Assembly (NCBI GenBank): GCA_046350815.1
Contig: JAXLZO010000001.1
Location: forward strand, 960,001 to 992,000
DNA: 32,000 nt
DNA from: Candidatus Saccharimonadota bacterium
GTDB lineage: Bacteria > Patescibacteriota > Gracilibacteria > BD1-5 > UBA2023
Direction: 5' to 3'
Each line of letters begins with the position of its first letter. The stretch's first letter is position 1. This document shows positions 24,291 to 31,615 of the stretch, piece by piece. The notes below the pieces were generated by a model that saw only the letters and a program-made list of their open reading frames with translations, was not told the DNA's origin and ran no database searches. The translations under genes and the position numbers were made by a program.

Positions 24291-25059
24291 GGCTCTAGAC
24301 AAGAAGAATCATCTTCTTACACTAGTTCCATATGATCAAATACAGTAAAATCAGCTCTGAGAAAATACGAGAAATTTTGAAGCTATTTTTAGGAGACTTT
24401 ACTGCCACTCAAACATCAGAACTTCTCGAAATATCTCGTAACACTATTAACAGGTACTATGCTATATTTCGAGAAGAAATTGTGAGAATATCTATTGAAG
24501 AGTCATCAAAGTTTTGAAAAGAATTCTGAGAATTTGAAATTGATGAGAGTTATTTCGGTGTAAGACGAGTCAGAGGAAAACAATGAAGATGAGCGGCTGG
24601 AAAAACACCACAGTGTTTGGACTTCAGAAAAGAAACTGAAATGTCTCTGTAAGTATTGTTCCAGATTGTAGTAGAGACTCATTAATACCTATAATATACG
24701 AGGAAAAGTTCTGGAATGATCCACGGTCAACTCTGATGGTTGGACAAGTTATGATGGGCTTATACTCAATGGATACGAACATTATAAAGTATTTCATTCA
24801 CACAATGCACCACACAGGCATACACTTCGTTAAGTTTGCGAGATGAAAAAGTCATGTAAACGGTATAGAGGCATTTTGGAGTTTTGCAAAACGAAGAATG
24901 ATCAAATTAAACTGAATCCGAGCAGATAAATTTCATCTTCATTTGAAAGAATGCGAGTTTCGGTATAATTATCGCAATAAGAAAGAAGAAGCCTTACGGC
25001 TCCTTCTTACGAAGATTAGCGAAACGCTAAATTATTCAAATGTTTGCTTGTCTAGAGTC
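24291..25059 (+). mobile_element. IS1595-family insertion sequence (decayed)
   Basis: Terminal inverted repeats GGCTCTAGACAAG (24291-24303) and CTTGTCTAGAGTC (25047-25059) match at 12/13 positions. They enclose an ISXO2-like transposase reading frame. Confidence 0.65.
24332..25035 (+). pseudogene. IS1595/ISXO2-like DDE transposase, at least 3 frameshifts
   Basis: N-terminal HTH, then EIDESYFGVRRVRGKQ-G-R-G-AAGKTP. The frame slips near 24611 (VFGLQKRNGNVSVSIVPD), near 24693 (IRGKVLEGSTVNSDGWTSYDGLILNGYEHYKVFHS) and near 24810-24830 (HVNGIEAFWSFAKRR...LHLKECEFRYN). Confidence 0.7.
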
Positions 25060-25086
25060 TCGAAAATTATCTTTTGTCATATTTCT

Positions 25087-26088
25087 GTGACTCATGCATC
25101 CCACTATGATGATCGTCGATCTCACCAGCGTAAGCGAGGAGAGTCGAGATTGTCCTCTCAAAAACATAGTATCACTTTTCTCTCAAGGGACTCACAGCAA
25201 GCATTTTGGATAGTCGCCCGGGTCATCCAGCGTCCAGATCGTGAGGTACTTGTTTTGCTTTCTCAAGGCTCAACTAACACACTCAAAATCGAATCAATTA
25301 TACGTTGACATGTGATCTGAGATCATATCTGTGTTCGTGATGGAACATATATAGGGGTATATGAGCAATCGCATACACTCTGTAGGATGAAAGGAGATAG
25401 CGACCGATATTCACTCGGTGTGAGGCGAGAGCAAACGATCGCTACCAATATCGATACGATCGTTATTGTTGCTTCTGTCTCGCAGCCACACTTTCAGCCA
25501 TGATTTCTCGATAGATATTTGCTCCTCTCTGAGTACTGTCAGATCCCAGCAGTCATTGTCCTGACCAAATCTGATCTTGCGCTGATACCACATGATCTCC
25601 TTGCTCCCTATCGGGATATACTCAAACTCCCAATCTTCATCACGAGCAGTGATGATCCAGATTCACTCTCGTCACTTCGTTCGTATTTGTCTGATAAGGT
25701 TTCGGTATTTGTCGGAAAAAGTGGAGTCGGAAAATCCACTCTGACCAATTGTCTCCTTGGTCGTGAGGTTGCTACTGAGGGTGAGGTATCTCGGATCGAT
25801 CAGCAATGACGACATACAACGACTGGCTCAAGTCTGTATTCACTACCAGATGGTGGATATATCATAGATACTCCCGGTATCCGCTCGCTCGATTTTCTTG
25901 AGCTAAAGCATTCAGAGATACGATTGTATATGTCTGATATTGCCAAGATTGGACTATCATGTCACTATCGTAGCTGTCTCCATCAAGGTGAAGATGGATG
26001 CGCTATACAAGATGCTATAAAAACTTGATTACTCTCAAAAGCTCGATATGAGAGCTATATTCGCCTCTTGAACGAAGCAAAAAAATAA
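25087..26088 (+). CDS. rsgA: ribosome small-subunit biogenesis GTPase RsgA
   Basis: OB-fold region, NIDTIVIVAS, LTKSDL, P-loop GKSGVGKSTL, QQ-G(TGA 25807-25809)-RHTTT, DTPGIR and zinc knuckle CHYRSCLHQGEDGCA. Stop TAA 26086-26088. The start is uncertain: GTG 25087 is the first start-like codon after the IS right end. Confidence 0.8.
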
Positions 26089-26118
26089 CCCTCTATGGTA
26101 TTGGGGGTTAGGCTTCTT

Positions 26119-26138
26119 CTTAGAAGATTTTATAAATA
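26119..26138 (+). repeat. 20-bp direct repeat, copy 1 (IS-end-like, TAGAAGATTTTA core)
   Basis: CTTAGAAGATTTTATAAATA versus TCTAGAAGATTTTAGAAATA at 26756-26775, 17/20 identical. The two copies bracket a very AT-rich segment with no convincing ORF. Confidence 0.4.
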
Positions 26139-26755
26139 ATATTAAATCTTCTTATTGTATTAATGTGGCATAAGCCTCTTTTTATGATTGATTTTAAGTA
26201 CTTTTCTGAGTTTTTTTGAGCGAATAAATTATAGTTAAAATTAAAAAATAAATCAAAATAACAGGAAAGAACAAAAATCCATATATAAATAACGGTGGAA
26301 CCATCCCTTCTCATAGGTATACATTATTTCCTGAAACAATGTATAGAAATATATATAAAATGGTTCACAATAAAAACGGAAGGAGTCCTAGATATGTATT
26401 ACTCATTTCAATTTTTCCATAAATGTCTCGTCTTCGTAAGATAATGTATTTATTATATCTTCTTCAAAAGATATATAAGAATAAAAATAGACTTATTATA
26501 TACGATATGACTTGCTGTGAATTAAAAAATATATGTAAAAAGTTTTTTATAATAATTCATATTATATATGTTATTGTAACACTTATAATCAAAGTTTCAA
26601 TTGATCTCCAGAAAAATTCTTTTCAGTTAACTTTTTCATCTGATGGGATATCTCCAAAAATCCATTTTGAAAATTTACTATTCATATAAGTGAAGTTAAT
26701 TGTAAGTACGGATTACTAGTATTCTTTCTTAGAAATGGTTTCCCTGACTCTTGTG

Positions 26756-26775
26756 TCTAGAAGATTTTAGAAATA
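26756..26775 (+). repeat. 20-bp direct repeat, copy 2
   Basis: See copy 1. It contains the same TCTAGA core as the IS1595 inverted repeats. Confidence 0.4.
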
Positions 26776-26831
26776 CCTAAGATTTTCTAGGCTTTTTTAT
26801 AAAAAGCTTTAATCATTTTAAGAAGTTCTTG

Positions 26832-26984
26832 TTACAGTTCAATATTTGTTTTCGTATAGCGCCATTCACACTCTTTAAGATGCAAATGAAAGTTTACTCT
26901 CACTCAGTTAAACTTACTCAACCTTCTCTGTGTATAGGTCATCAACATGGACTTCATTACATTTGTCAATCCGCTATACCCATA
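26832..26984 (-). pseudogene. IS1595-like transposase C-terminal relic
   Basis: The minus strand reads ...TYTQRRLSKFN-G(TGA)-VRVNFHLHLKECEWRYTKTNIEL*. This is homologous to SFAKRRMIKLN-G-IRADKFHLHLKECEFRYN of the 24.3-kb IS. The N-terminal two-thirds are absent. Confidence 0.55.
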
Positions 26985-27106
26985 TAGCAATGTATTTTGA
27001 TATGATTATCTCGTGTTTTGTTGGCTCATTATTCTGATTTGTCTTTGATTGTATGTGTGCAATGGATCAGATGGGTGGGGTGTAGCTCATGCGGTTGCGG
27101 TAAATG

Positions 27107-27856
27107 CTAGATGTGTATCATTTTCTGGAGTGCTTCAAATTGTTTTATCTGGCCATCAAGACGAATGCATAACTCTTGCTGTAAGTGCACATGATGCAAT
27201 CATCTTGCCTGATCCTTGGCTCTTTCGAGTACTGACACTTGCTCTTGTATAGTAGTGGTAAGGGTGTGCTTTAATGCTGATAGGTAGTCAATAATATGCT
27301 TGTTACTTTCTCAAAATAGTAACCACATTTGTTCGTATTGCTTTTGATTGAGTTTGCTTCGTAAAATTTTTGCTACATAAGTAAGTCGTTTTTGGAGTGT
27401 GTAAATTTTCTGCATTTCTTTACTTACTGTTTTGATTTTTTCAAAGCTTTGCGCACTATCCAGGCTGACCCTATTGCCCTCTGTTTGGTGAAATTGTATA
27501 ATAGCATCCAGACTCCGTACGACGTACCGGTTATATATATTTATTAAAGGGTTGCTAACACATATATAGATTACTACCCAACTAACTGGTATTAAACTGA
27601 ACATCCCTCATATAAAAACCAAAGATTGCACTAGTGGATGCAGCTCGGGGTGATTGTCTACATATGTGGCACATGCTCAAAAAATCAGACCAACTAGAAG
27701 CATTATTATGACAGTCAAGATTTTGCTTTTTGCTTTATTATTTTCCATATTAATCCTGTGTAGATTGGATTGAAGAAGTCTGTATCCTTCTAAGATATTT
27801 TCTGGAGTATCACTTTCTCATGTATGTGTGACTTCTGATGGGATTACTTGTGTCAT
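27107..27856 (-). CDS. 2TM + coiled-coil protein, paralogue A
   Basis: ATG 27856. ORF-track piece 27311..27604 is extended on both sides through TGA. Two TM helices (ILTVIIMLLVGLIFGACATY, FIGGMFSLIPVSWVVIYICV), then a long helical region. C-terminal tail is LQQELCIRLDGQIKQFEALQKMIHI; stop TAG 27107-27109. Confidence 0.55.
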
Positions 27857-27890
27857 ATAAAATTTTGATATTACTTATCTTTTGCACTCA

Positions 27891-28544
27891 TTAGTATGCT
27901 TGTATTTTTTCTTGCAGCTGCTCAAATTGTATTATCTGCTCGTGGAGCCTGAGCTGCTGCATATGAAGCACGCCGACAGCGTCCTCTCTCTCACCTAGCT
28001 CTGCGATATTTTGGGAGAGGGCAGAAGCGAGTATATCTTTTTGTCAGTCTATATTTTTTGAGAGTTGTGATTTGAGCTCATGACCGAATTCGATCAAAAA
28101 ATTGAGTTCTATTATGAGCTTTTTGATTGTTTTTTGATAGCTTTCTTCGGTGAGAGTAAAAAACAAGACATTTTTTACTCTACTAAAATACCATATATTT
28201 TTCTGTATTTGGTAGAGGCAATCAAGGATTTCATCGGTATTCCGAGTATCTTTTGACTGCTCAAATAGAGAGAGGCTTGTATCCATGCTCTTAAATAAAA
28301 GAGTCATTCATTGGGTTGTTACCACGACAACAATAGTAAAAATAATTGCCATTCATCCTGTAAAGATCATATAATTTTCTATATCTTTTGAGGTATCAAT
28401 CCCAAACAATAGCAAAATGAAGCACATGATAGCAAAAAATGGAAGCAATAAAGCTAGGGTTGGCACTATACCCATGATACCTGACCACTGCATATCTTCC
28501 ATGAAGCTTATTATTTTTCGCTGTTGAGTTATATCTTCCTCCAT
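27891..28544 (-). CDS. 2TM + coiled-coil protein, paralogue B
   Basis: Pieces 28353..28544 and 28044..28307 and a tail are joined by TGA. Two TM helices, then a helical region. Tail is LHMQQLRLHEQIIQFEQLQEKIQAY; stop TAA 27891-27893. Confidence 0.55.
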
Positions 28545-28547
28545 AGA

Positions 28548-28646
28548 CTATATAGTTATCTGCTCTATCCAGCGAGTGTAGATACTCATATCGACCATTT
28601 TGAGAGATGAGGAAGTTTCTTGTATAGTTTTTCTGAGGTTATCCAT
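28548..28646 (-). pseudogene. orphan duplicate of the last 32 codons of the AAA+ ATPase gene
   Basis: MDNLRKTIQETSSSLKMVDMSIYTRWIEQITI* compared with the ATPase C-terminus ...MDNLRKTIQETSSSLKMVDMSIYTRWIEQIKL*. It begins exactly at an ATG, and its TAG stop is 3 nt before the paralogue B start. Confidence 0.7.
28564..28646 (-). repeat. 83-bp perfect direct repeat, copy 1
   Basis: Identical base-for-base to 29372..29454. Flanking sequence is diverged. Confidence 0.95.
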
Positions 28647-28657
28647 TTATCTGGGGG

Positions 28658-29350
28658 TTATTTTGTAGGTGTATTGTTTTGTAGTTTTTTCTGCAGGAGT
28701 CAAAACTGCTCTATCTGTCGATCAAGGCGAGCTTGGATATCAGCGGTCAGTGAGGGTCTCTGGAGTCAGTTGACTTGCTCTCTAGCACTCTCGAGATCAT
28801 CGATCTGTATCGTGAGTTGAGAGTGGAGCTCTGACCTGAGACGAGAGATCTCTTGTATCATATAGAGTGAGCTCTCACCTAGGAGTGTGCGTAGCCGCCC
28901 AGAGACAGATTGGAGCAATCTTGACTGGGATTGCTGGTAGAGCGTTTCATGAAGCTGATAAACAAGATATATCTTGTTAGTAATTTCCATAATAACACTG
29001 TTGTTTTTATATTGCCATTCTTGATTGTTTTGTATAGCATGAAATGTTGCCATTGCGTTACATATTTGTTGTATTGGCCTGAGAGTAACATATATACAGC
29101 TTCTCCGTATAATAGCCTCAAATCAAAGCCCAGTGTAGAGTAGCATTATAGCTATTAGTATGAAGCCATTCTTGGGTACTATTTGGCTAAAAAAGTTAGC
29201 TGCATGCAAATAGTACATTGCAGGTAGTCATATACAGAGGTAGAAATATAATAAAATCCTTTTTGTACGATGCTCCGTTGCTGATCCGTATATCCGTATT
29301 GAATTACTGAGCTCTGTATATGTTTTTATTATTTCTTCATGAGTGCGCAT
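28658..29350 (-). CDS. 2TM + coiled-coil protein, paralogue C
   Basis: ATG 29350 lies 5 nt after the ATPase stop. Two TM helices (ILLYFYLCIGLPAMYYL, FILIAIMLLYTGLGFEAII). Piece 28766..29053 continues through TGA to the tail IQARLDRQIEQFGLLQKKLQNNTPTK; stop TAA 28658-28660. Confidence 0.55.
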
Positions 29351-29355
29351 AATTT

Positions 29356-30621
29356 TTATAATTTTATTTGTTCTATCCAGCGAGTGTAGATACTCATATC
29401 GACCATTTTGAGAGATGAGGAAGTTTCTTGTATAGTTTTTCTGAGGTTATCCATCGTGATCTCGTGTCCGAGGAGATTGTCTTCTGTGAGAGTCCCGGCT
29501 TGTGCCTCATCTATGAGCTCGAGGAGGTTATAGCTCGCATCCCTCGCGACCTCATCACAGATTGCTTCGATATCTGCGGATACGTACCCATCACTGAGCT
29601 GAGCTAGCTCATCATAGTCGAGAGTCTCATGTGGACGACCAGCTCGCTCGATATACATCAAAAACAGTGCCTTTCGAGCATTGGTATCTGGTGGTCCGAG
29701 GTAGATTTTTTTGTCGAGACGCCCAGATCTCAGGATCGCCGAGTCGAGATGGTCAGGACGATTGGTAGCGGCTATGACAATCAGATTTTGCACCTCTGAG
29801 AGAGCGTTGAACTCTTGGAGAAATTGAGAGAGTTCCTCAGCTTTATGGGCGTCAGATCATGTAGTACGTGATGATACGAGCGAGTCTATCTCATCGAGAA
29901 AAAGTACGATCGGCTCATCCTTTGCTGCAAGCTTTGCACCGTCAAAAAATTCCTTGATATTCTTCGTCGTTTGATGTTGATACGACGAACCAAATTCCCC
30001 CATATTTTTGGAAATAAACCCTGCTCAGAGTTCTTCCGTAAGCTTCTTGGTTATATAAGTCTTTCCTGTTCCTGGAGGACCATAGAAGAGAAGTCCTGTC
30101 GGGATCGATACCTTGAATTTCTCATAGAGCGAGAAGAGATCTTGGTAGAGCTTCGTATTTTTTTCATCCATTTTCAATGAGTCCTCCTTTTCTTCATCTG
30201 ACTTCTCCGAGCCTTGCTTCTCGATCGCACGCATACGAAAAGCAAATTGAAGTGGACGCACAAAACTCTCGGTGAGCTCCTTTTTGAGGTCATCCATGCC
30301 AGCAATTCATGCAAATCACCATGTCTGTGGATTGTCTTTCTTAAAGTGTTTCACCTCAATAGGCAAAGACGGCGTATCATCCTTTTTTTGTGATGATGAT
30401 TGTGTCGTAGTGTCGATAGGATTTTTAGGGATTTGAAGCTCTGAAAAAGTATCATGGAGATGTTTGTTCGTTTCTTTGAGAGCCTTTTCAGCGGTTGTCA
30501 TAGCTTCTTCGAGCGATTCAAGAGATGATTGTTTCAAATCTCCATTCGCTATTTTTGCAAATTCTGGAGAGCTCGTCACTGCATTGAAGAATGCATCAAA
30601 TCATGGTTGTGGAGTGGACAT
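29356..30621 (-). CDS. AAA+ ATPase (classic clade, single AAA module) with low-complexity N-terminal region
   Basis: Pieces 30316..30579, 30025..30297 and 29356..29793 share one frame joined by TGA. Motifs: QTW-G-FA-G-IAGMDDLKKEL, Walker A GPPGTGKT, Walker B VLFLDEID, and second region of homology IAATNRPDHLDSAILRSGRLD. ATG 30621; stop TAA 29356-29358. Confidence 0.85.
29372..29454 (-). repeat. 83-bp perfect direct repeat, copy 2 (3' end of the ATPase gene)
   Basis: See copy 1; the two copies are spaced 808 bp apart. Confidence 0.95.
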
Positions 30622-30630
30622 AGTTGGTAT

Positions 30631-30951
30631 TTAGATGCTATTCTCTACTTTTTGTGCTGATTGCAAGTGGAGATTAAAGTTTTTTTCGAGAAGATCTATG
30701 ACTTCAGCGTTTTCACTACTCTTTTGCGAGAGAGATTGATGAATCTGATGGATTTCTTGCTGATAATTTTGAAGGTCTTTTGTATGAGATTGAATCCAAT
30801 CTGTAAGAATAGATTGGAAATGCGATAAATTCGATTTCATGTCACGATCTTCATTTTGAAGCATATCCTGAAGAGGATAATTTTGATTATTCTGAAGACA
30901 AAAGAAGAAGGATTTTTTATGGAGAAGATTGATGATGTGAGAAAAACTCAT
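30631..30951 (-). CDS. small Q/H-rich coiled-coil protein
   Basis: First ATG at 30951 (the ORF track starts at TTG 30972). Ends TAA 30631-30633, 9 nt before the ATPase ATG. Sequence has a heptad-like character (LQNYQQEIHQIHQSLSQ). Confidence 0.4.
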   Translation of the reverse strand: MSFSHIINLLHKKSFFFCLQNNQNYPLQDMLQNEDRDMKSNLSHFQSILTDWIQSHTKDLQNYQQEIHQIHQSLSQKSSENAEVIDLLEKNFNLHLQSAQKVENSI

Positions 30952-31084
30952 ATATGCATCTTTCCATAGCAATGTTATGCTTTGTATCTGATAAGCTATT
31001 TCTGCGATATTACGTAATTAAAATCTTGTGTGATATTGTACAGGATTTTCTCAAAAAAAGCAAAATACACATACATTTGCACAC

Positions 31085-31104
31085 AAAAAAGAGCCCGAGG
31101 GCTC
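31085..31104 (-). terminator. GC-rich intrinsic terminator
   Basis: The minus strand reads GAGCCCTCGGGCTC followed by TTTTTTGTGTG, 13 nt after TGA 31118-31120. Confidence 0.75.
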
Positions 31105-31117
31105 AGTTAGGATATAA

Positions 31118-31615
31118 TCATTTGAATCGCATGTAAGTACCATGCCACTCAAGATGATCACGAATCTTTTGCATCTTTTGCAACGAAACGGATTCACCGT
31201 TAATTGCAAAAAATACAGGAAGTAACGGGTTATATTTTATGACAGCCGTGTACTGTTCAAGCATGTCATCCAAAGCTTGAACAGCAGCATGACAGAAGTT
31301 ATCAGAGCGGTGCAAGATCTGATGCCAGCGCGCCCACGACGTATCATGCAGACGTTCATCAATCACAATCACCGTATCAGCCATAATCAGCTTGATGCGA
31401 AAATAGCTGTGACTCATAAGAGACGTGTAGAGTTTAAACTCAGCATATTCCGCAAAGCGTAATGTAGTTGCATTTGGCAGATGTTCTGTCGTAAAACGTT
31501 CACGACCGCCATCAAGAAACCGACGATAGAATGCATTTTTCACCCTTTCCTGCAAGGAAATCTTTGCAGGTTTTTTGCCAATGTGTGGCAAATATTGGTT
31601 AATACTCGAAGTCAT
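31118..31615 (-). CDS. hypothetical protein with standard-code gene signals (foreign-looking)
   Basis: 165-codon ORF with no in-frame TGA and glycines encoded only by GGC/GGT. AGGAGG lies 8 nt before the ATG. It ends in TGA directly followed by a terminator and uses more NNG/NNC codons than its neighbours. No family recognised. Confidence 0.7.
   Translation of the reverse strand: MTSSINQYLPHIGKKPAKISLQERVKNAFYRRFLDGGRERFTTEHLPNATTLRFAEYAEFKLYTSLMSHSYFRIKLIMADTVIVIDERLHDTSWARWHQILHRSDNFCHAAVQALDDMLEQYTAVIKYNPLLPVFFAINGESVSLQKMQKIRDHLEWHGTYMRFK

Follow-up and report, generated by a model that had tools for sequence, protein, structure and literature searches.

For the effector-immunity arrays of the Vibrio cholerae type VI secretion system (T6SS), 'sequential displacement' has been proposed to occur via homology-facilitated illegitimate recombination, as has C-terminal displacement in rhs loci (Kirchberger et al. 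2017, PMC5361080; for rhs, Jackson et al. 2009, as cited there). In such displacement a conserved upstream gene anchors the recombination, the new module comes first and the old one lies downstream with a 3′ stub of the upstream gene. Here, we analyse a locus of similar build in a 32,000-nt stretch of DNA (the window) deposited as Candidatus Saccharimonadota bacterium (GCA_046350815.1, contig JAXLZO010000001.1, positions 960,001 to 992,000), in which the 3′ end of an AAA ATPase gene recurs as a short orphan open reading frame (ORF) between two downstream paralogous genes, C and B. As in T6SS and rhs displacement, the orphan is near-identical to part of full loci elsewhere, and one junction appears homologous and the other illegitimate. 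Unlike in those systems, the conserved gene is a cytoplasmic AAA ATPase with a conserved C-terminus in place of a variable toxin domain, the genes pushed downstream are paralogues of a membrane/coiled-coil type that show no sign of being immunity genes, and the anchor appears downstream, on the side of rsgA. A likeness to the orphan cassettes of polymorphic toxin/immunity loci had been drawn in an earlier note on this DNA, made from the letters alone; it holds for the architecture only, a 3′ stub with its downstream gene in distal position, as the ATPase has a conserved end where polymorphic toxins carry a hypervariable C-terminal toxin domain. The paralogues have no match in Pfam, NCBIfam, PADLOC or the PDB, and nothing in them points to a toxin or an immunity protein. 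Two further systems invite comparison. The elements e14 and phage 21 insert in the 3′ end of E. coli icd and carry a replacement 3′ end; here, too, the gene is intact and a slightly different, displaced copy of its 3′ end lies on the far side of the insert, but the 725 nt between the repeats hold paralogue C only, with no integrase and no att-type core. As in intrachromosomal gene conversion between short direct repeats, a sharp-edged identical tract lies within longer diverged homology, two alleles form a mosaic with a single breakpoint, and position 29386 is a possible reciprocal patch; unlike in typical cases, the tract measures only 63–83 nt, one of its sides coincides with the physical end of the homology, and we infer the conversion itself.

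The genes in question become readable when TGA is taken as a sense codon. Doing so raises the ORF coverage of the window (GC 37.7%) from 20 kb to 79 kb, and the TGA codons of the ATPase are aligned with Gly in NCBI proteins annotated as Candidatus Gracilibacteria, which indicates a genome of that group with genetic code 25. Annotated with table 11, the window yields badly fragmented ORFs, and the relevant minus-strand genes need TGA as sense. Along the minus strand, which is the coding strand throughout the array, the order is ATPase, C, orphan, B, A, a pseudogene fragment with a transposase remnant, a hydrophobic ORF and a terminator-like hairpin, toward which rsgA converges from the opposite strand (Table 1). 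The two repeat copies (28564–28646 and 29372–29454) are identical at all 83 positions, and the exact match stops at both edges; extended without gaps, the pair reaches 98 nt at 95% identity, and the two starts lie 808 nt apart. Mismatches occupy 5 of the 15 nt just past the repeat and none of the 83 within it (Fisher p = 4e-5), and B and C share 21% protein identity, so that the perfect duplication, the diverged sequence beside it and the barely alignable paralogues are as the earlier note had described them. The ATPase copy lies within the last 33 codons of the gene, which ends in EQIKL and a stop. That the orphan forms a 32-residue ORF ending 3 nt before B is correct for the spacing to the ATG at 28544, but B has two possible starts: on four related contigs, gene callers choose the next ATG (28493, MQWSG..., 200 aa), 54 nt past the orphan stop, an ambiguity that bears on any argument from translational coupling. 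Looked up among called genes, the orphan peptide had no record. Both repeat copies also contain, on the plus strand and antisense to the ATPase (28600–28628 and 29408–29436), a sigma-70-like TTGAGA-17-TATAGT that matches at 10 of 12 positions.

Close relatives were found by homology searches with the ATPase, B and C, which returned a handful of short Logan contigs, among them L085 and L001 (SRR30545106/7), L089 (SRR12900999), L084 (SRR26425193) and L086 (SRR14234038). JGI metagenome contigs and IMG/VR, scanned for exact matches to a 38-mer and to a 20-mer with one degenerate site, yielded 0, so the strain-level evidence comes from the Logan contigs throughout; the contig L090 (ENA), a chimeric, low-quality sequence of 659 nt, was left out. 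The relatives carry two alleles of the 99-nt ATPase tail, Y (L001/L085) and X (L089/L084), which differ at 21 informative sites. At these sites, the orphan reads YYYYYYYYYYYYYY followed by XXXXXXX, that is, Y at the first 14 (tail positions 6–63) and X at the last 7 (69–99), a contiguous Y-type run abutting an X-type run as in gene conversion. Accordingly placed along the window, the identity of L089/L084 is 72–84% over the first ~50 nt of the orphan (in the 63 nt preceding the shared end), 98–100% from ~28596 to ~28320 and 90–96% beyond. The sharp step from identity to divergence is a recombination signature, and the orphan is a single-breakpoint mosaic of two ATPase alleles, which largely bears out the recombination that the earlier note had read into the repeat. 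The ATPase tail of the window is itself Y at all sites save position 69 (29386), which carries the base of X and the orphan; around 29386, and nowhere else in the last ~330 nt of the gene (~29690–29356), the sliding identity to L085 is below 100%, and this single base hints at an exchange in the other direction too. The longest stretch that is near-identical in the X and Y alleles is the DNA for VDMSIYTRW (tail positions ~49–83); hence, crossovers between the diverged alleles are expected there, and it is there that the switch is located.

The contigs also differ in what follows the ATPase. L085, 99% identical to the window over 29788..28642, has the ATPase-C junction, beyond which an intact hairpin (TAACCCCCAGATAAATAGAGGGTT with a T-run) leads directly into the rsgA flank, without the 2.55-kb block that begins with the orphan, B and A; L001, 97.6% identical, shares the ATPase-C junction. 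In L089 and L084, by contrast, a full, diverged ATPase, whose 3′ end is 82–84% identical to that of the window, ends in EQITI and a stop, followed by TCT and the ATG of B, which is exactly the sequence behind the orphan in the window. The B relatives in these two contigs are 92–99% identical and stand directly behind the full ATPase, and the orphan together with B matches this X-type ATPase-B unit at 98–100% from tail position 64 into B. Downstream, the order is B-A in L089 and B-C′-hairpin-rsgA in L084, in which rsgA has 73% identity to that of the window. The population has at least two locus types: Y, with ATPase, C, terminator and rsgA, and X, with the EQITI-ending ATPase and then B and A. 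C, found at the same junction in L085 and L001, is the native partner of the Y-type ATPase. The earlier note had predicted that recombination between the copies would excise paralogue C and place B directly behind the ATPase; an ATPase directly before B does exist in L089 and L084, with the last 15 nt of the orphan, the spacer and B, but the 82–84% identity of its 3′ end marks an older, diverged haplotype and not a fresh 808-bp deletion from the haplotype of the window. In a further contig from an independent sample, L088 (SRR12908346), the C end is followed by the orphan, B and A as in the window, the orphan has the same chimeric build and its 83-mer differs at one position; another contig, L086, starts inside the repeat. 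The interval 28320–28583 on the minus strand, which joins the final ~36 nt of the tail to the initial ~225 nt of B, is 98–100% identical in four contigs, and the contigs sharing it (L084, L088, L089) differ elsewhere by 4–27%; it appears to be a short block that has recently spread among diverged backgrounds.

The two ends of the inserted sequence are of different kinds. From the C stop through TAACCCCCAGATAAAT, the 5′ stem and loop of a terminator-like hairpin, the window equals L085; L085 then continues natively into AGAGGGTTATTTTTT (AGAGGG), whereas the window passes into the ATPase tail, so that TAACCCCCAGATAAAT abuts GGATAACC, which in the ATPase is preceded by ...CACGAT. The fold of the C hairpin, −9.2 kcal/mol in L085, is lost in the window (−2.7). 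The two partners share 2 nt of microhomology, 'AT', at the join, which is therefore illegitimate. The 'AT' supplies the first two bases of the orphan ATG, and the exact start of the orphan at a Met codon, pointed out in the earlier note and present as described, is thus explained by a junction in the loop of the C terminator. On the other side, divergence between the window and L085 is dense over 26101–26019 (~20% over ~100 nt) and fades to ~0 by ~25950 inside rsgA. Donor DNA that stops at a homologous crossover should leave such a gradient, which a simple deletion should not, and the gradient marks the homologous side of the exchange. For the same reason, deletion of the orphan-B-A block as the sole origin of L085 was rejected, the flank on the rsgA side being ~20% diverged for ~100 nt. 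A homologous end with fading divergence and a microhomology join at the other end are what homology-facilitated illegitimate recombination leaves behind.

Hence, we hypothesize that the orphan 83-mer is a recombination scar from a displaced copy of the ATPase and not a device, a reading that we regard as probable. A Y-type locus would have taken up a tract running from the last ~100 nt of an X-type ATPase through B, A and the rest of the array into the 3′ end of rsgA, by homologous recombination in rsgA at the right end and by an illegitimate join in the loop of the C terminator, at the AT microhomology, at the left. This combination of one illegitimate and one homologous end gives the pattern of homology-facilitated illegitimate recombination. 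A 5′-truncated tail of the X-type ATPase would thereby have stayed before B, with ATPase-C stacked ahead of truncated ATPase-B-A; the C terminator would have been destroyed, so that B and A probably came to lie in the ATPase-C transcription unit by read-through. A homologous exchange between the two tails may then have overwritten the first 63–83 nt of the orphan with the resident allele, either at a later time or when a crossover fell in the conserved core, and it may have left a reciprocal patch at 29386; such an exchange would yield a perfect 83-nt identity that ends where the allele-specific last 15 nt begin. Within this displacement history, we lean towards gene conversion as the cause of the perfect identity, with less confidence than we place in the scar as a whole. 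In the alternative form of this step, the donor already carried a chimeric tail and no conversion took place.

Table 1. Features of the ATPase-paralogue locus, in window positions
Feature	Position	Strand	Remarks
AAA ATPase, 'Y' allele	29356..30621	-	421 aa, code 25, five in-frame TGA = Gly
Repeat copy 1	29372..29454	-	83 nt encoding MDNLRKTIQETSSSLKMVDMSIYTRWIE, ATPase C-terminal tail
Paralogue C	28658..29350	-	230 aa; hydrophobic segments on the N-terminal side, then a helical C-terminal half that ends in RLDRQIEQF..LQ; family by jackhmmer
Left junction	28645..28660	-	C stop codon and 5′ half of the terminator-like hairpin of C (TAACCCCCAGATAAAT), broken in the loop
Orphan ORF	28548..28646	-	32 codons and stop, ends EQITI-stop; 5′-truncated ATPase 3′ end; includes repeat copy 2
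Allele switch inside orphan	28578..28584	-	14 Y-type sites upstream, 7 X-type from 28578 on
Paralogue B	27891..28544	-	217 aa from ATG 28544, or 200 aa from ATG 28493
Paralogue A	27107..27856	-	249 aa; family by jackhmmer; B-A order common to L088 and L089
C′-like paralogue 5′ remnant (putative pseudogene fragment, fourth paralogue)	26983..27078	-	96 nt
IS1595-type transposase C-terminus remnant in the array	26844..26939	-	33 codons
Small hydrophobic ORF	26194..26685	-	163 aa, GC 23%; last gene of the block missing in L085; no family match
Terminator-like hairpin and T-run at array end	26080..26109	-	AACCCCCAATACCATAGAGGGTT TTTTTTT; complete; loop unlike that broken after C
Right side of the putative exchanged tract (spacer and 3′ end of rsgA)	25944..26101	.	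RsgA domain PF03193

Several points weigh against this history or parts of it. The complete donor haplotype is present on no contig, the Logan contigs being short, and hence the polarity, an insertion into Y as opposed to other routes, rests on parsimony. If the donor had a Y-like tail with an X-like end, no conversion would be needed for this orphan, the breakpoint at tail positions 63–69 may stem from the lineage of L089/L084, and the shared base at 29386 could be an ordinary polymorphism. Also, the contig of L088 passes through the orphan unbroken; as we take the Logan contigs to be k = 31 assemblies, the ATPase tail of that strain may differ from its orphan, in which case the homogenisation may be specific to the strain in the window.

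Among the other explanations, the least improbable, though still unlikely, is an old in-situ tandem duplication of the ATPase tail with a paralogue that gave rise to C and B, after which repeated gene conversion, with the functional ATPase as its source, kept the tail identical by concerted evolution. The family does expand by duplication (1–3 copies in ~25 of 80 loci), decayed orphan tails lie between paralogues in two other species (L026, L037), and the step in identity fits a conversion tract. However, the last 15 nt of the orphan, the spacer and B are identical to the native X-type ATPase-B junction of other genomes, the join between C and the orphan interrupts the loop of a terminator which L085 has in full, and the right flank shows a donor-like gradient of divergence, which together speak for the joining of two pre-existing haplotypes and not for a local duplication. 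Moreover, B and C are each closer to genes in first position elsewhere (B to those of L089/L084, C to that of L085), and the orphans of L057 and L012 are not homogenised (90–93% identity). A recent tandem segmental duplication was rejected outright, since only 98 of 808 nt align and B and C have 21% protein identity. A further rival is that the repeat is an assembly artefact in which two strain variants were joined into a chimera. The population does contain a mixture of strains, and several related contigs end in this region or close to it, as L086 does, but L088, which comes from another sample and another assembler, has this junction too and runs from the C end through the orphan and B to A, the join between the C end and the tail needs reads that contain it, and 83 nt is shorter than a typical read; an artefact, which the earlier note had named as what would undo its reading, is very unlikely.

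It is improbable, in our estimate, that in Gracilibacteria the DNA for VDMSIY..W of the conserved ATPase tail acts as a standing homology arm through which paralogue cassettes are captured from other lineages and stacked or swapped, and that the retained 32-codon orphan is expressed; it could then be a mini-ORF through which translation of B stays coupled, or supply free ATPase C-terminal helices that modulate assembly of the ATPase. Were this so, a recombinase-free cassette system would diversify the membrane partners of an AAA machine in a host-dependent bacterium with a reduced genome. We give a little less credence still to programmed cassette shuffling, after the manner of the orphan modules of polymorphic toxin/immunity loci, in which the tail would be a dedicated homology arm, or the orphan an expressed element, and tail recombination would switch the following paralogue. 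Units of orphan tail and paralogue do occur in five lineages, the tail-B block is 98–100% identical where rsgA differs by 27%, indicating that the cassette moves between lineages, and breakpoints cluster in the ATPase 3′ end (29538 in L002/L003, 29454 and ~29390). Yet no recombinase lies between or beside the repeats, the nearest mobile-element gene being an IS1595-type transposase 3.5 kb off, the ATPase C-terminus is conserved and not polymorphic, the paralogues have no toxin, immunity or defence match, loss of C by tail-tail recombination would be irreversible, and the 3–15-nt spacer between ATPase and paralogue explains the recurrence without a special mechanism. A mobile element bounded by the repeats was likewise dismissed: C alone stands between the copies, there is no integrase, and a comparison of 26100–30650 with phage and plasmid DNA gave no match. 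Marginally less plausible again is nucleotide-level selection on the 83 nt, which the earlier note had offered as its alternative, be it as an RNA element, an internal promoter or a mini-ORF coupling translation of the downstream paralogue. In favour, every orphan keeps the extreme 3′ end and stop at the native spacing to the paralogue ATG, and the promoter-like motif is in both copies, though antisense. Such sites, however, number 19 in the region against 19.1 expected in shuffled sequence, fold energies are no better than those of shuffles (z = +0.84 for the 83-mer alone and −0.23 with flanks), and an E-value scan of 25500–31500 found no Rfam match; on these results the RNA element was rejected. 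The functional X allele, in addition, differs at 14 of the first 63 positions and yet serves the same B, so the first 63 nt are not required in cis for B.

Orphan ATPase tails before paralogues are not confined to the window. When each species locus was scanned for extra copies of its own ATPase 3′ end, further orphan tails, shorter than that of the window, were found in four other Gracilibacteria species (L057, L012, L037, L026). In L057, the ATPase and paralogues P1 and P2 are followed by three unrelated genes, a 42-nt orphan tail encoding DMSIYTSWLEKIK and a stop, and then P3; the differences from the ATPase are all synonymous, which implies that they arose while the fragment belonged to a working ATPase allele. 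In L012 (1830–1960), only the final 57 nt of one paralogue (RLDRQIEQFEELQRVLVRV and a stop) remain, joined directly to the ATPase stop; then come a 29-nt orphan tail and an intact paralogue, an order that is a deletion derivative of the window-like arrangement. A decayed paralogue and ...WLEKLK with its stop precede the first intact paralogue in L037, and a degenerate FDMNVYEDSLEIIK with its stop lies between P1 and P2 in L026. The first paralogue starts 3–15 nt past the ATPase stop; with so short a spacer, a rearrangement that keeps an intact paralogue tends to carry along a piece of the ATPase, and a dedicated mechanism behind the recurring orphan tails, though conceivable, is unneeded.

The ATPase consists of one classic AAA module (Pfam PF00004, E 6e-35), of which the C-terminal tail is the ordinary end. 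It has more than 100 homologues at 55–62% identity, those with names being Gracilibacteria, its best PDB relatives are VAT/CDC48/p97, and against NCBIfam equivalogs it stays below every cut-off; among the contigs, it is 99% identical to the ATPase of L085 and 97.6% to that of L001. Few parts of the protein are as well conserved as the repeated tail (ITMDxLRKTIxETPSSLKMVDMSIYxxWLEKIK) in an alignment of 20 Gracilibacteria sequences, with M390, S402-L404, V407-M409, Y412 and W415 invariant. A reading as a defence system was set aside: in PADLOC the ATPase matches IetA/TRIP13-type AAA models solely via the generic AAA module, and the paralogues have no match. A further allele (P0002, 78% amino acid identity), on L002/L003, has ~83% (82.6%) DNA identity over 1350 nt, up to window position 29538; its last ~180 nt are unalignable, and no paralogue but convergent unrelated genes lie downstream. 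The N-terminal ~130 residues of P0002 are near-identical to those of P0001 and not to those of the window ATPase, a pattern which suggests that the ATPase gene is itself mosaic.

Many Gracilibacteria appear, from the 80 species-level loci retrieved using the ATPase, to carry this conserved AAA ATPase gene followed by a fast-changing array of 1–3 paralogous membrane/coiled-coil genes, with tandem members behind the ATPase in ~25 of the 80. The paralogues are ~220 residues long, with a variable, hydrophobic N-terminal half and strongly conserved last ~70 residues that end in RLDRQIEQFEELQRVLVKV in most species; A, B and C share 16–21% identity pairwise. None of the three has a match in Pfam, NCBIfam or PADLOC, a PDB profile search with a 20-member alignment gave insignificant coiled-coil or designed-bundle matches only, and an AlphaFold2 (AF2) model of P0126, 98% identical to a window paralogue, built on a 6-sequence alignment, is all-helical with a pLDDT of 59. 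At the 3′ ends of A, B and C (27114–27151, 27901–27938 and 28680–28717, spaced by 787 and 779 nt), 38 nt share 68–74% DNA identity and encode the conserved ...Q(I/F)..LQ.K C-terminus, a potential second site of unequal recombination within the array.

Read as a displacement scar, the orphan is a new example of an already known type, in an uncharacterised and fast-evolving ATPase-linked array of Gracilibacteria. The array behind this Gracilibacteria-wide ATPase differs among close strains in copy number, order and allele, and parts of it are 98–100% identical between genomes that are otherwise 27% diverged, a pattern that is a signature of diversifying or frequency-dependent selection with active gene flow. 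The lineage is uncultured; the paralogues, a defined family of ~220 aa with a variable membrane half and an invariant ...RLDRQIEQFEELQRVLVKV end, are candidate partners or substrates of the ATPase. The locus offers a concrete, datable case of illegitimate and homologous recombination and of short-tract exchange in a candidate-phyla-radiation genome, and it supplies targets for PCR and long reads with which to measure how natural populations vary in structure.

Beyond A, the array appears to hold the remains of a further member. The C′-like remnant was found by tblastn with the L084 C′ protein (residues 14–45, 94% identity) and by blastn (90% over 108 nt), the transposase remnant by tblastn with the IS1595-like ORF of the window (54.5% over 33 aa, E 2e-6), and 26194–27078 looks like a fourth paralogue destroyed by insertion. 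The IS1595/ISXO2-type transposase itself lies on the plus strand just upstream of rsgA (24332–25060; PF12762 just above the gathering score) and is split over two frames, with a helix-turn-helix (HTH) ORF at 24332–24517 and the DDE part from 24514, and may represent an insertion sequence (IS) that is frameshifted or in decay. The other long ORFs of the window look like housekeeping genes when their translations are read (EF-Ts, lysyl-tRNA synthetase, FtsK, SecD/F); no secretion system is evident among the translations read, no systematic search for one having been made. On the far side of the ATPase, the minus strand holds a 165-codon ORF in 31010–31615 (GC 42%, no family match) that reaches a TGA at 31118–31120, and 13 nt past this TGA, at 31091–31104, lies a strong GC hairpin with a T-run (GAGCCCTCGGGCTC TTTTTT). 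Code 25 extends the ORF through this terminator to 31010, as does the gene call on L001 (201 aa); either the TGA ends the gene, or the terminator lies inside a coding tail.

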